Both the position numbers and the translations under genes were made by a program. The notes under the pieces are model-generated. The model made no database searches. It was not told the origin of the DNA and was given only the letters and a program-made list of their open reading frames with translations. This document shows, one piece after another, positions 20,819 through 25,342 of a DNA stretch of 39,252 nt; within the stretch, counting starts at the first letter, position 1, and the number at the start of each line of letters is the position of its first letter. This DNA comes from Escherichia phage EcoDS1. The DNA lies in sequence record NC_011042.1; one strand, 5' to 3'.

Positions 20819-20841
20819 ACTAAACTATCACTATAGGGAGA
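20819..20841 (+). promoter_or_regulatory. Phage-RNAP promoter (phi10-like), best consensus match
   Basis: CTAAACTATCACTATAGGGAGAC; initiating GGGAGA and a leader with GGTTTCCCT as in the T7 phi10 leader; AGGAGA RBS before the capsid ATG. Confidence 0.85.
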
Positions 20842-20943: not shown

Positions 20944-21987
20944 ATGGCAAACGTTCCGGGTCAGAAAATTGGTACAGACCAAGGTAAAGGCAAATCTAGT
21001 TCCGACGCTCTGGCGTTGTTCCTGAAGGTCTTTGCTGGTGAAGTACTGACCGCATTCACTCGCCGCTCTGTAACGGCTGACAAGCATATTGTCCGTACCA
21101 TTCAGAACGGTAAGTCTGCTCAGTTCCCGGTCATGGGTCGCACCTCTGGTGTGTATCTGGCTCCCGGTGAGCGACTGTCCGATAAGCGTAAAGGTATCAA
21201 ACATACCGAGAAAGTGATTACCATTGATGGTCTGCTGACTGCCGATGTGATGATTTTCGATATTGAAGACGCGATGAACCACTATGACGTGGCTGGTGAG
21301 TATTCCAACCAGCTAGGTGAAGCTCTGGCTATCGCTGCCGATGGTGCGGTTTTAGCTGAAATGGCTATCCTGTGTAACCTTCCGGTTGCATCCAACGAGA
21401 ACATTGCTGGTCTAGGCACCGCCTCCGTACTGGAAGTTGGTAAGAAAGCAGACCTCGACACTCCGGCTAAACTGGGTGAAGCAATCATCGGTCAATTGAC
21501 CATTGCTCGTGCGAAGCTTACCTCCAACTACGTTCCTGCTGGCGACCGCTATTTCTACACAACGCCTGATAACTACTCTGCAATCCTCGCTGCTCTGATG
21601 CCGAACGCTGCTAACTATGCTGCGCTGATTGACCCAGAGACTGGTAACATCCGTAACGTGATGGGCTTCGTTGTTGTTGAAGTTCCGCATCTGGTACAGG
21701 GTGGAGCTGGTGAGACTCGTGGTGAAGATGGTATCACTATCGCTTCCGGCCAGAAACACGCATTCCCGGCGACTGCTACTGGCGACGTTAAAGTTGCTAT
21801 GGACAACGTTGTGGGCCTGTTCTCTCACCGTTCTGCTGTTGGTACTGTGAAGCTGCGTGACTTGGCGCTGGAACGTGACCGTGACGTCGATGCTCAGGGC
21901 GACCTGATTGTTGGTAAGTACGCTATGGGTCATGGTGGTCTTCGTCCAGAAGCAGCAGGCGCACTGGTTTTCAGCCCAGCGGCGTAA
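20944..21987 (+). CDS. Major capsid protein (gp10A)
   Basis: 347 aa; KHTEKVITIDGLLTADV, EDAMNHYDV, LAALMPNAANYAALIDPE, GLFSHRSAVGTVKLRDLALER, KYAMGHGGLRPEAAGA match T7 gp10A. Confidence 0.97.
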   Translation: MANVPGQKIGTDQGKGKSSSDALALFLKVFAGEVLTAFTRRSVTADKHIVRTIQNGKSAQFPVMGRTSGVYLAPGERLSDKRKGIKHTEKVITIDGLLTADVMIFDIEDAMNHYDVAGEYSNQLGEALAIAADGAVLAEMAILCNLPVASNENIAGLGTASVLEVGKKADLDTPAKLGEAIIGQLTIARAKLTSNYVPAGDRYFYTTPDNYSAILAALMPNAANYAALIDPETGNIRNVMGFVVVEVPHLVQGGAGETRGEDGITIASGQKHAFPATATGDVKVAMDNVVGLFSHRSAVGTVKLRDLALERDRDVDAQGDLIVGKYAMGHGGLRPEAAGALVFSPAA

Positions 21988-22118
21988 GTACCTTTAGCCA
22001 ACCTAACGTCGCTACAGTAGCGGCTGCACCTGAAGAGGAGACTCTAACTCCTCAACAGAAAGCTGCGCGTACTCGTGCTGCGAACAGGGCCGCTAAACTG
22101 GCTGAGTCCAATAACTAA
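20944..22118 (+). CDS. Minor capsid protein gp10B by -1 ribosomal frameshift (predicted)
   Basis: G_GTT_TTC at 21966..21972, five codons before the 10A stop; the -1 frame stays open for about 49 codons to TAA at 22116..22118. T7 makes 10B the same way. Confidence 0.55.
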
Positions 22119-22123
22119 TTGAA

Positions 22124-22161
22124 ACCCCTTGGGTGCCTTCGGGTGCTTGAGGGGTTTTTTG
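22124..22161 (+). terminator. Intrinsic terminator after the capsid gene (Tphi-like)
   Basis: CCCCTTGGGTGCC-TTCG-GGTGCTTGAGGGG hairpin with a UUCG loop followed by TTTTTT; resembles T7 Tphi. Confidence 0.8.
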
Positions 22162-22181
22162 CTTAAAGTGAGAGGAGACTT

Positions 22182-22748
22182 ATGGCTCAATACATTCCAC
22201 TGAATGCTAACGATGACTTAGACGCCATCAACGATATGTTAGCAGCTATCGGTGAACCAGCAGTCCTACAGCTTGACGAGGGGAACGCTGACGTCTCGAA
22301 CGCTCAACGTATCCTACATCGTGTCAATCGTCAGGTCCAAGCTAAAGGCTGGAACTTTAACATCAACGAAGCTGCTGTCCTGACACCTGATATCCAAGAC
22401 AATAGGATTCGATTCTTGCCATCATACCTTCGTGTAATGACTGCTGGGGCCACCAGCTACTACAGCAACATGGGTGGATACCTGTACGACCTGTCCACTC
22501 AGTCAACCACTTTCACCGACCCTATCACGGTAGAGCTTGTGGAGATGAAGCCATTCTCCGAGATGCCTGTGGTCTTCAGGGACTACATCGTCACTAAAGC
22601 TAGCCGTGAGTTCAACGCTAAGTTCTTCGGTAGCCCAGAGTCTGAACTGTACCTTCGTGAGCAGGAAGCAGAACTCTATCAGCAGGTCATGGAATACGAG
22701 ATGGATACTGGTCGCTACAACATGATGTCCGACATCGGGAGGGACTAA
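22182..22748 (+). CDS. Tail tubular protein A (gp11)
   Basis: 188 aa; IGEP, GWNFNI, YIVTKASREFN, FFGSPE, MEYEMD match T7 gp11. Confidence 0.92.
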   Translation: MAQYIPLNANDDLDAINDMLAAIGEPAVLQLDEGNADVSNAQRILHRVNRQVQAKGWNFNINEAAVLTPDIQDNRIRFLPSYLRVMTAGATSYYSNMGGYLYDLSTQSTTFTDPITVELVEMKPFSEMPVVFRDYIVTKASREFNAKFFGSPESELYLREQEAELYQQVMEYEMDTGRYNMMSDIGRD

Positions 22749-22975
22749 TGGCTAGTCACAACCTGAAGATTCACCGCCAGCACTTTGGTCCTGTACAACT
22801 AGGTCTAAAGACAGCAGAGCTGAGACTTAACGACCGGGACTTTAAGGTTGGCGACTGGCTTATCCTGAACGAGTGGGACAACGGATATACTGGACAACAG
22901 GTAGCACGTAAGGTTGTCCACATTGCTGACGTTGGTGACATCGCTGAGGGATACGTCCTAATGAGTATGATTTAA
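22748..22975 (+). CDS. DUF3850 / ASCH-like small protein (75 aa)
   Basis: H.LKIH..HFGPV..GLKTAELRLNDRDFKVGDWLILNEWD..YTGQQV fits the DUF3850 pattern as I recall it (ASCH/PUA-like fold); TAATG coupling to gp11; T7 has no gene here. Confidence 0.65.
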   Translation: MASHNLKIHRQHFGPVQLGLKTAELRLNDRDFKVGDWLILNEWDNGYTGQQVARKVVHIADVGDIAEGYVLMSMI

Positions 22976-22984
22976 GGAGGTCCT

Positions 22985-25342
22985 ATGCCACTAATTACTC
23001 AATCAATCAAGAACCTTAAAGGCGGTATTAGCCAGCAGCCAGACATACTGAGGTTCTCAGACCAAGGCGAGGAGCAAGTTAACTGCTGGTCATCGGAGAG
23101 TGATGGCCTCCAGAAGCGTCCACCTACAGTCTTCAAGCGACGTCTTAACATCGACGTTGGGAGCAACCCTAAGTTCCACCTGATTAACCGTGATGAGCAG
23201 GAGCAGTATTACATCGTGTTCAACGGGTCAAACATTCAGGTAGTTGACTTGAGTGGTAATCAATACTCAGTTTCCGGTGAGGTAGACTACGTTAAGTCGT
23301 CCAACCCGCGAGATGACATCCGTGTTGTTACCGTTGCAGATTATACGTTCATCGTGAACCGTAAGGTTGTCGTTAAAGGGGGAAGCGAGAAGTCACACTC
23401 TGGTTACAATCGTAAAGCTCGTGCTTTAATTAACCTGCGTGGTGGACAGTATGGTCGCACCCTTAAGGTAGGAATCAATGGAGGCGTTAAGGTTTCGCAT
23501 AAGTTGCCAGCAGGTAATGATGCCGAGAATGACCCTCCTAAGGTTGATGCTCAGGCTATCGGTGCAGCTCTGAGAGACCTTCTTGTTGCTGCTTACCCTA
23601 CCTTCACGTTCGACCTTGGGTCTGGCTTCCTGTTAATCACTGCCCCTTCAGGGACTGACATTAACTCAGTGGAGACGGAGGATGGCTACGCTAACCAGCT
23701 AATCAGCCCAGTACTCGACACAGTGCAAACAATCTCTAAGTTGCCTCTTGCAGCTCCAAATGGGTACATCATTAAGATTCAAGGTGAGACCAACAGTAGC
23801 GCCGATGAATATTACGTGATGTATGACTCCAACACTAAGACGTGGAAGGAGACAGTAGAGCCGGGAGTGGTCACTGGGTTCGATAACACCACAATGCCAC
23901 ATGCTCTGGTGAGACAATCTGACGGCTCCTTTGAGTTCAAGACTCTGGACTGGTCTAAGCGTGGTTCTGGTAATGATGACACAAACCCTATGCCTAGCTT
24001 CGTGGATGCCACGATTAACGATGTGTTCTTCTACAGGAACAGGCTAGGGTTCTTGTCAGGCGAGAACGTAATCATGAGCCGTTCAGCAAGCTACTTTGCG
24101 TTCTTCCCTAAGAGTGCGGCTACATTGAGTGATGACGATCCTATTGACGTAGCCGTAAGTCACCCTAGAATCTCAATCCTTAAGTATGCCGTTCCGTTTA
24201 GCGAGCAGCTACTACTTTGGTCAGATGAGGTGCAGTTCGTTATGACAAGCTCTGGGGTCCTCACTGCGAAGTCTATCCAGCTTGATGTAGGCTCAGAGTT
24301 TTCCTTAGGCGATAATGCCAGACCGTTCGCTGTAGGACGCTCAGTCTTCTTCTCAGCGCCTCGTGGGTCATTCACCAGCATTAAGCGATACTTCGCTGTA
24401 GCAGATGTGTCTGACGTGAAGGATGCCGATGATACCACTGGCCACGTACTGTCCTATATCCCTAACGGGGTGTTTGACATTCAAGGTACAGGGACTGAGA
24501 ACTACATCTGCGTCAACTCTACAGGTGCATACAACCGAATCTACATCTACAAGTTCTTGTTTAAGGATGGCGTACAGCTTCAAGCCTCTTGGTCGCACTG
24601 GGAGTTCCCTAAAGCTGATAAGATTCTGGCGTCTGCGTCGATTGGCTCTACCATGTTCATTGTTCGTCAGCACCAAGGCGGCGTGGACCTTGAGCACCTT
24701 AAGTTCATCAAGGAGGCAACTGACTTTCCGTTAGAGCCATATAGACTCCACGTTGACTCCAAGGTGTCTATGGTAATACCAATTGGCTCATACAACGCTG
24801 ACACCTATAAGACTACGGTTGACATTGGTTCTGCTTATGGAGGAAACGCTCCGTCTCCCGGTCGGTACTATCTGATCGACAGTCAGGGTGCCTACGTGGA
24901 CCTTGGGGAATTTACCGACATCTCAACTGTGGCTATACTCAATGGCGATTGGTCAGGACGTACAGTGTTCATCGGACGGTCTTATCTGATGTCCTACAAG
25001 TTCTCACGGTTCCTGATTAAGATTGAAGACGAGAGTGGCACTCAGTCTGAAGACACTGGACGCCTACAACTTCGCCGGGCTTGGGTCAACTACAAGGACA
25101 CTGGCGCTCTTAGACTCATTGTCAGAAACGGTGAGCGGGAGTTCGTGAACACCTTTAATGGGTACACCCTTGGTCAGCAAACCATCGGGACTACCAACAT
25201 TGGGGATGGTCAGTATCGCTTCGCTATGAATGGTAACGCATTAACCACGAGCCTAACCTTAGAGTCAGACTATCCTACCCCAGTGTCCATCGTTGGGTGT
25301 GGCTGGGAGGCGTCATACGCTAAGAAAGCTCGTTCCGTCTAA
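22985..25342 (+). CDS. Tail tubular protein B (gp12)
   Basis: 785 aa; SQSIKNLKGGISQQPDILR, VADYTFIVNR, DPIDVAVSHPRISILKYAVPFSEQLLLWSDE, RLQLRRAWVNYKDTG, IVGCGWE match T7 gp12. Confidence 0.96.
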   Translation: MPLITQSIKNLKGGISQQPDILRFSDQGEEQVNCWSSESDGLQKRPPTVFKRRLNIDVGSNPKFHLINRDEQEQYYIVFNGSNIQVVDLSGNQYSVSGEVDYVKSSNPRDDIRVVTVADYTFIVNRKVVVKGGSEKSHSGYNRKARALINLRGGQYGRTLKVGINGGVKVSHKLPAGNDAENDPPKVDAQAIGAALRDLLVAAYPTFTFDLGSGFLLITAPSGTDINSVETEDGYANQLISPVLDTVQTISKLPLAAPNGYIIKIQGETNSSADEYYVMYDSNTKTWKETVEPGVVTGFDNTTMPHALVRQSDGSFEFKTLDWSKRGSGNDDTNPMPSFVDATINDVFFYRNRLGFLSGENVIMSRSASYFAFFPKSAATLSDDDPIDVAVSHPRISILKYAVPFSEQLLLWSDEVQFVMTSSGVLTAKSIQLDVGSEFSLGDNARPFAVGRSVFFSAPRGSFTSIKRYFAVADVSDVKDADDTTGHVLSYIPNGVFDIQGTGTENYICVNSTGAYNRIYIYKFLFKDGVQLQASWSHWEFPKADKILASASIGSTMFIVRQHQGGVDLEHLKFIKEATDFPLEPYRLHVDSKVSMVIPIGSYNADTYKTTVDIGSAYGGNAPSPGRYYLIDSQGAYVDLGEFTDISTVAILNGDWSGRTVFIGRSYLMSYKFSRFLIKIEDESGTQSEDTGRLQLRRAWVNYKDTGALRLIVRNGEREFVNTFNGYTLGQQTIGTTNIGDGQYRFAMNGNALTTSLTLESDYPTPVSIVGCGWEASYAKKARSV

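Follow-up and report, generated by a model that had tools for sequence, protein, structure and literature searches.

A T7-type -1 frameshift site in the major capsid gene of the K1F-like phage EcoDS1 and the predicted minor capsid protein 10B

Gene 10 and its overlapping -1 frame

The DNA analysed here, called the window in the following, is the whole 39,252-nt stretch of Escherichia phage EcoDS1 (NC_011042.1), and all positions are counted from its first letter. The capsid gene and the features at its 3' end are these:

20944..21987, + strand: gene 10A, major capsid protein of 347 aa and 36.3 kDa (ORF list; zero frame)
21918..22118, + strand: open -1 stretch of 66 codons plus TAA, overlapping the final 22 codons of 10A (frame scan)
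21966..21972, + strand: slippery heptamer G_GTT_TTC at Val342-Phe343, identical to the shift site of T7 gene 10
21972..22118, + strand: 10B-specific tail of 48 codons (QPSGV...LAESNN) plus TAA, translated after a -1 shift only
join(20944..21969,21969..22118), + strand: predicted 10B, a minor capsid protein of 391 aa and 41.0 kDa (computed)
21978..22013, + strand: candidate 3' stimulatory hairpin of 8 bp plus 2 bp, 21978-21985 with 22006-22013 (folding, relatives)
22121..22160, + strand: Tphi-like intrinsic terminator, a 17-pair hairpin with a UUCG loop followed by a U-run (folding; alignment with T7 Tphi)

In the gene 10 region the window has 95-96% identity to the Kayfunavirus members Hafnia phage yong1, Citrobacter phage SH3, ST31 and K1F, and the right 24 kb of the window show about 94-95% identity to TM1 and IMEP24. 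The 10A gene itself has 96% DNA identity to Kayfunavirus capsid genes, and its product matches the PDB chain 9vvq_I and the T7 10A chains. Judged by these identities the stretch belongs to Kayfunavirus, i. e. to the K1F-like phages of the T7 family. This refines the original prediction, which had compared the locus with T7: by sequence, EcoDS1 is K1F-like and not T7 itself.

The 3' end of 10A reads CTG GTT TTC AGC CCA GCG GCG TAA, with the stop codon at 21985-21987. The codon five before the stop is the TTC of G_GTT_TTC, and the heptamer lies at 21966-21972 in the X_XXY_YYZ register, GTT encoding Val342 and TTC Phe343. The original prediction had placed the slippery site five codons ahead of the 10A stop, and this is exactly where it was found, in register. 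On the + strand of the window GGTTTTC occurs only once; with both strands counted there are two copies where 3.7 are expected. The copy number is unremarkable, and the position alone is informative.

In the -1 frame a TAA precedes 21918, and from there no stop is met until the TAA at 22116-22118. Within these 66 codons there is no ATG, GTG or TTG, the sole near-cognate start being a CTG six codons before the end, and the list of ORFs of at least 30 aa has no entry in this frame. Read after a slip on the heptamer, the first codon would be CAG at 21972, and a total of 48 sense codons follows (QPSGVSTFSQPNVATVAAAPEEETLTPQQKAARTRAANRAAKLAESNN) before the TAA, 44 of them beyond the 10A stop. The previous estimate of about 49 further codons thus corresponds to 48 sense codons plus the stop. 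The predicted 10B consists of 343 residues in common with 10A and the 48-aa tail.

Among the 32 long ORFs of EcoDS1, -1 runs of at least 48 codons follow 2.0% of the codons. In our judgement the decisive evidence against a chance open frame is comparative.

Comparison with known 10A/10B systems

In the closest relatives the arrangement is already on record. A two-piece 10B CDS with a span of 1175 nt and a product of 391 aa is annotated in CR44b (NC_023576) and Penshu1 (MK903281), and the records of T7 and T3 also contain two-piece 10B CDSs. In the CR44b record a mass-spectrometry note is attached to 10A, not to 10B. K1F, CR44b and Penshu1 form a genus-level group with EcoDS1; they share about 95% gene 10 DNA identity, the heptamer, the terminator and an extension of 44 codons past the 10A stop. 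For K1F gene 10 a -1 frameshift that adds 44 triplets has been published, and g10b::gfp fusions gave stable fluorescent virions (PMC6277420); a 2026 paper describes the use of the K1F 10b locus for capsid display (PMC13370021). The 48-aa tail of EcoDS1 is 100% identical to the -1 tail of K1F. The tail DNAs of the two phages differ by synonymous changes in the -1 frame only, whereas the last residue of 10A is Glu in K1F and Ala in EcoDS1. In CR44b the end of the tail is slightly longer (-AAESQ). The 10A/10B frameshift site of EcoDS1 is thus real but not new, being known for the K1F-like group, and the original prediction was right to class it as expected biology.

The frameshift of T7 on G_GUU_UUC goes back to Condron, Atkins and Gesteland (1991, as cited in PMC5009743 and PMC1635266). 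In T7, 10B accounts for about 10% of translations (PMC1635266), and G_GU is accepted as X_XX (PMC5009743). T7 and EcoDS1 have the identical heptamer at the homologous Val-Phe, a homologous tail with an (E)TLTPxQxAARTRAAN core, a -1 stop just ahead of the homologous Tphi hairpin, whose 5' arm contains CCCC, and the same logic of the 10B join. Junction and tail of EcoDS1 align to T7 10B with 64% identity (BLASTP, E 6e-17), the common core being TLTPxQxAARTRAAN. With the T7-identical heptamer, a -1 ORF that has no start codon and a tail homologous to T7 10B, EcoDS1 reproduces the T7 arrangement, as had been proposed. The two phages differ in the length of the tail (56 aa in T7, 48 in EcoDS1) and in the linkers.

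T3 resembles EcoDS1 in that the same gene shifts at a position near the 10A stop and yields a minor capsid species decorated at its C-terminus. Yet T3 shifts on C_CCA_AAG, and Pfam recognises its tail, about 90 aa long, as a Big_2 Ig-like domain (4.4e-10). In the overlap zone of EcoDS1 there is no NNNAAAG in register. A T3-type Ig-like fold was also considered for the EcoDS1 tail and rejected, as Pfam assigns it to none of its families while it finds Big_2 in the tails of T3 and of the loci L028 and L043.

No PDB chain covers the tail. In a single-sequence AlphaFold2 prediction, which is weak evidence, residues 1-26 have no secondary structure and residues 27-47 form a helix with a pLDDT of about 85-92. 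This model would fit a basic helix attached through a flexible linker. The helix, LTPxQKAARTRAAN, is kept across several T7-like clades, and its conservation suggests a specific function of the tail.

Coding selection on the tail and distribution of the slippery site

Relatives of the tail were sought by blastn of 21988-22118 and by scanning viral contigs with a back-translated AARTRAAN pattern; in the blastn search about 79 phage records matched over 80% or more of the tail region. Over the 144 nt of the tail, EcoDS1 and K1F differ at four positions; each of these changes is silent in the -1 frame and nonsynonymous in both of the others. In the comparison with T7, over the conserved block of 22 codons, 14 of the 23 variable sites are third positions of the -1 frame. 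Counted as codon changes, 11 are synonymous and five nonsynonymous in the -1 frame (11/16), as against two and 15 in each of the other frames. The comparisons with the loci L010 and L032 gave the same picture. Since the synonymous bias is specific to the -1 frame, this frame has been maintained as a coding sequence.

The pattern scan returned about 43 T7-like loci. In all but L095 the motif is read in the -1 frame relative to the capsid gene, and every one of them has GGTTTTC, CGTTTTC, AGTTTTC or GGTAAAG in register upstream. In 11 of 11 aligned Kayfunavirus sequences the heptamer is invariant. Across 100 distinct capsid 3' ends, a sample partly selected on the tail, the slippery site and a long -1 ORF occur together. 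With the site present, the -1 ORF extends at least 40 codons past the stop in 71 cases and is shorter in three; with the site absent, it is that long in six cases and shorter in 20 (Fisher 6e-13, for loci that are not phylogenetically independent). Relatives that lack the tail write the same Val-Phe as GTC TTC or GTA TTC. Thus the protein sequence does not force the slippery codons.

The exceptions are few. All three ends with the site and a short -1 ORF (L009, L044 and L122) have evident lesions. L009, which is the same contig as L095 (IMGVR_UViG_2974615076_000001, about L009:2535-2545), has lost 1 nt at the 10A stop, a deletion that turns GCGTAAGC into GCGTAGC. GGTTTTC is still there, but a -1 shift no longer leads into the T7-type tail, which is itself intact. 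L122 has an early stop within the tail. The lesions of L009 and L122 could each stem from a sequencing error or represent a loss of 10B that occurred in nature. As relatives with a broken 10B exist, phages can probably do without the tail, and shifting may be inefficient.

None of the six long -1 ORFs without a site stops before the terminator hairpin; all of them continue through it, three as far as into gene 11. In these three (L041, L042 and L054) the capsid -1 frame is free of stops through the terminator into gene 11 for 217-225 codons. The slippery heptamer is absent from them (GTC or ATC precedes TTC), and the run-on looks coincidental rather than like a capsid-gp11 fusion.

Other phages carry a different cargo at this place. 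In further Kayfunavirus-like sequences (L013-L023, L074 and L075) a tail of about 90 aa follows the same shift position; searches of Pfam and PDB gave no significant match for this class. T3-like phages (T3 itself, i. e. L005, L028, L033 and others) have the Big_2 Ig-like cargo behind NNNAAAG or GGTTTTC. In two metagenomic contigs, L043 and L055, G_GTT_TTT is followed by a -1 ORF of 471 codons, which encodes Big_2 and about 390 aa with the GDSL-like motifs FEGDSLT and DGTHSN. The L043 extension beyond Big_2, including the putative GDSL-like region, has no significant match in Pfam or PDB. Across the relatives the position of the shift is constant and the cargo varies.

Signals downstream of the shift site

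The -1 frame had been predicted to end just before a Tphi-like terminator, and indeed the terminator hairpin begins 2 nt past the -1 stop. The hairpin (22121-22158) has a folding energy of -25.2 kcal/mol and a z-score of -4.55. Its CCCC at 22125-22128 is 153 nt away from the shift site, whereas in T7 the distance is more than 200 nt (PMC5009743). A search of 21800-22250 against Rfam gave no credible match.

With its native 3' context removed, the T7 heptamer alone gave less than 1% shifting (PMC1635266), and therefore more than the heptamer is needed for efficiency. The CCCC of the T7 terminator has been reported to affect frameshifting by a mechanism that was left unexplained (PMC5009743). 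As for EcoDS1, the presence of the CCCC arm proves nothing, because relatives without the frameshift site have the same arm. A long-range pairing of the terminator CCCC with a G-run near the site, an idea taken from the GGGGG of T7, was rejected. There is no such G-run in EcoDS1, it is not kept in close relatives of T7 (GGGAG, GGAAG, AAGGG), and the CCCC arm is also found where the frameshift site is missing.

A local candidate is the hairpin at 21978-22013. It starts 5 nt past the heptamer, contains the 10A stop codon within its 5' arm and folds with -11.1 kcal/mol (z -2.3). In an alignment of 10 distinct relatives 98.8% of the cells are paired. The changes seen in this hairpin are one-sided (G-U to A-U and C-G to U-G), none being compensatory. 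RNAalifold on 11 Kayfunavirus sequences likewise gave 62 pairs and no compensatory change, at a mean identity of 95%, which is too little variation for such a test. In stability, the 70 nt downstream of the site (-17.9 kcal/mol) rank at the 33rd percentile of the windows of the EcoDS1 capsid gene, whereas the hairpin 3' of the T7 site has -25.8 kcal/mol and lies at the 1.4th percentile. Hence the local hairpin of EcoDS1 is modest and conserved, but statistically not exceptional. Putative elements that raise the efficiency of the shift are this hairpin and the context of the terminator.

Highly stable hairpins occur at the same place in T7, L131, the Kvp1-like group, L107, L126, L130 and L026, all at or below the 4th percentile relative to windows of the same capsid gene. 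In T7 (L004, 1194-1265), in L010 (2530-2595) with the Kvp1-like group, and in L107, L126, L130 and L026 these hairpins are bipartite; they begin 4-8 nt past the heptamer, and the 10A stop lies within them. All pairs of the Kvp1-like hairpin are kept in the diverged L032 by four double (compensatory) changes, while the hairpin of the T7 group shows one-sided changes only. A tentative suggestion, which we consider rather doubtful, is that a hairpin 4-8 nt past the heptamer, with the 10A stop in its 5' arm, is the missing local stimulator of gene 10 in T7-type phages with 10B. If this were true, the EcoDS1 clade would carry a minimal version of it (21978-22013), which would mean a lower output of 10B or reliance on the terminator context. 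The stable hairpins of T7, the Kvp1-like phages and the others may in any case be relevant to the 3' stimulators in T7 gene 10, which are so far unexplained.

Proposed mechanism and alternative explanations

Our interpretation is that a T7-type -1 programmed ribosomal frameshift in the Kayfunavirus major capsid gene makes the minor protein 10B, to which we assign a probability of roughly 0.92. It builds on the slippery site and its register, the anatomy of the frames, the homology of the tail, the coding selection in the -1 frame and the co-occurrence of site and tail, all of which were read directly from the sequences. Shifting itself, its level (of the order of 10% or less) and the entry of 10B into virions are inferred from the experiments on T7 and K1F.

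According to this scheme most ribosomes would read GUU-UUC and four further codons and then terminate, giving the 347-aa 10A. In a minority, the tRNA-Val on GUU in the P site and the tRNA-Phe on UUC in the A site would slip back by one base to GGU-UUU; this slip is proposed because the heptamer is identical to that of T7. Decoding would then resume with CAG at 21972 and run for 48 codons to the UAA at 22116-22118, giving the 391-aa 10B. The longer protein would join capsid assembly as a minor species with its tail exposed on the surface. The tail would be built as a flexible linker rich in Ala, Pro and Ser, followed by the conserved basic helix (LTPQQKAARTRAAN-). Among the peptides expected to be specific for 10B are QPSGVSTF and SQPNVATVAAAPEEETL.

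Alternatively, the -1 ORF could be a relic. The heptamer would then be kept for Val-Phe only, shifting would be at background level, and 21988-22118 would effectively be a 3' UTR. The shifting of less than 1% on the isolated T7 heptamer (PMC1635266) would fit this, as would the unexceptional downstream structure in the EcoDS1 clade, the broken tail frame of some relatives and the lack of a mass-spectrometry note on 10B of CR44b. However, a relic does not account for the strong synonymous bias that is specific to the -1 frame over divergence up to T7. Nor does it agree with the codon usage, as the relatives with a tail all keep a slippery codon pair whereas those without it freely use GTC or GTA. 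Moreover, K1F fusions made in the -1 frame were displayed on virions (PMC6277420, PMC13370021). We therefore regard a relic as very improbable.

Another way to reach the same tail would be slippage of RNA polymerase at the T-run, or a ribosomal shift at a nearby site such as C_AGC_CCA. A run of T residues does exist, and the 22-codon overlap of the frames leaves room for alternatives. Yet the T-run within GGTTTTC comprises only four residues, far fewer than in the homopolymers that are prone to transcriptional slippage (reviewed in PMC5009743), and CAGCCCA is not conserved together with the same tail (CAGCTCA in SP7, ACAGCAG in CR44b, i. e. L030), whereas GGTTTTC is invariant there. This explanation appears even less probable than a relic. 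Independent initiation of a separate small protein inside the -1 ORF is effectively refuted on sequence grounds, as neither a start codon, apart from the late CTG, nor a listed ORF is available in the frame.

Annotation and use of the 10B locus

With programmed frameshifting as the preferred reading, the main value of the locus is one of annotation. The original prediction had asked for the extension to be annotated, and we suggest join(20944..21969,21969..22118) with a ribosomal_slippage qualifier. Most GenBank records of Kayfunavirus have no feature across the 131 nt after 10A, i. e. across the 10B tail. In the PRF-SP, STP-SP and CRW-SP series and in PDB 9vvq the 347-aa 10A product is labelled 'minor capsid protein'. 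The label seems to have been transferred by mistake between annotations, since it is the frameshift product, left without annotation, that is the true minor species. The C-terminus of 10B is a proven display site in T7 and K1F, and EcoDS1 could be engineered in the same way.

Neighbouring features

Between the tail tubular genes 11 (22182..22748) and 12 (22985..25342) lies an ORF of 75 aa at 22748-22975 on the + strand, which matches Pfam DUF3850 (1.9e-19) and ASCH (1.4e-5). Its homolog in CR44b is gene 11.05, annotated as 'RNA-binding protein', and further homologs are found in the records of PRF-SP2, SP7 and Penshu1. It is absent from the K1F annotation AM084414, in which gene 12 directly follows gene 11, and T3, in which 15 nt separate the two genes, likewise lacks it. 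A putative T7-like phage promoter (ACTAAACTATCACTATAGGGAGA) was recognised by eye at about 20819-20841 on the + strand, some 100 nt ahead of gene 10; its location presumably corresponds to that of phi10 in T7 and T3.
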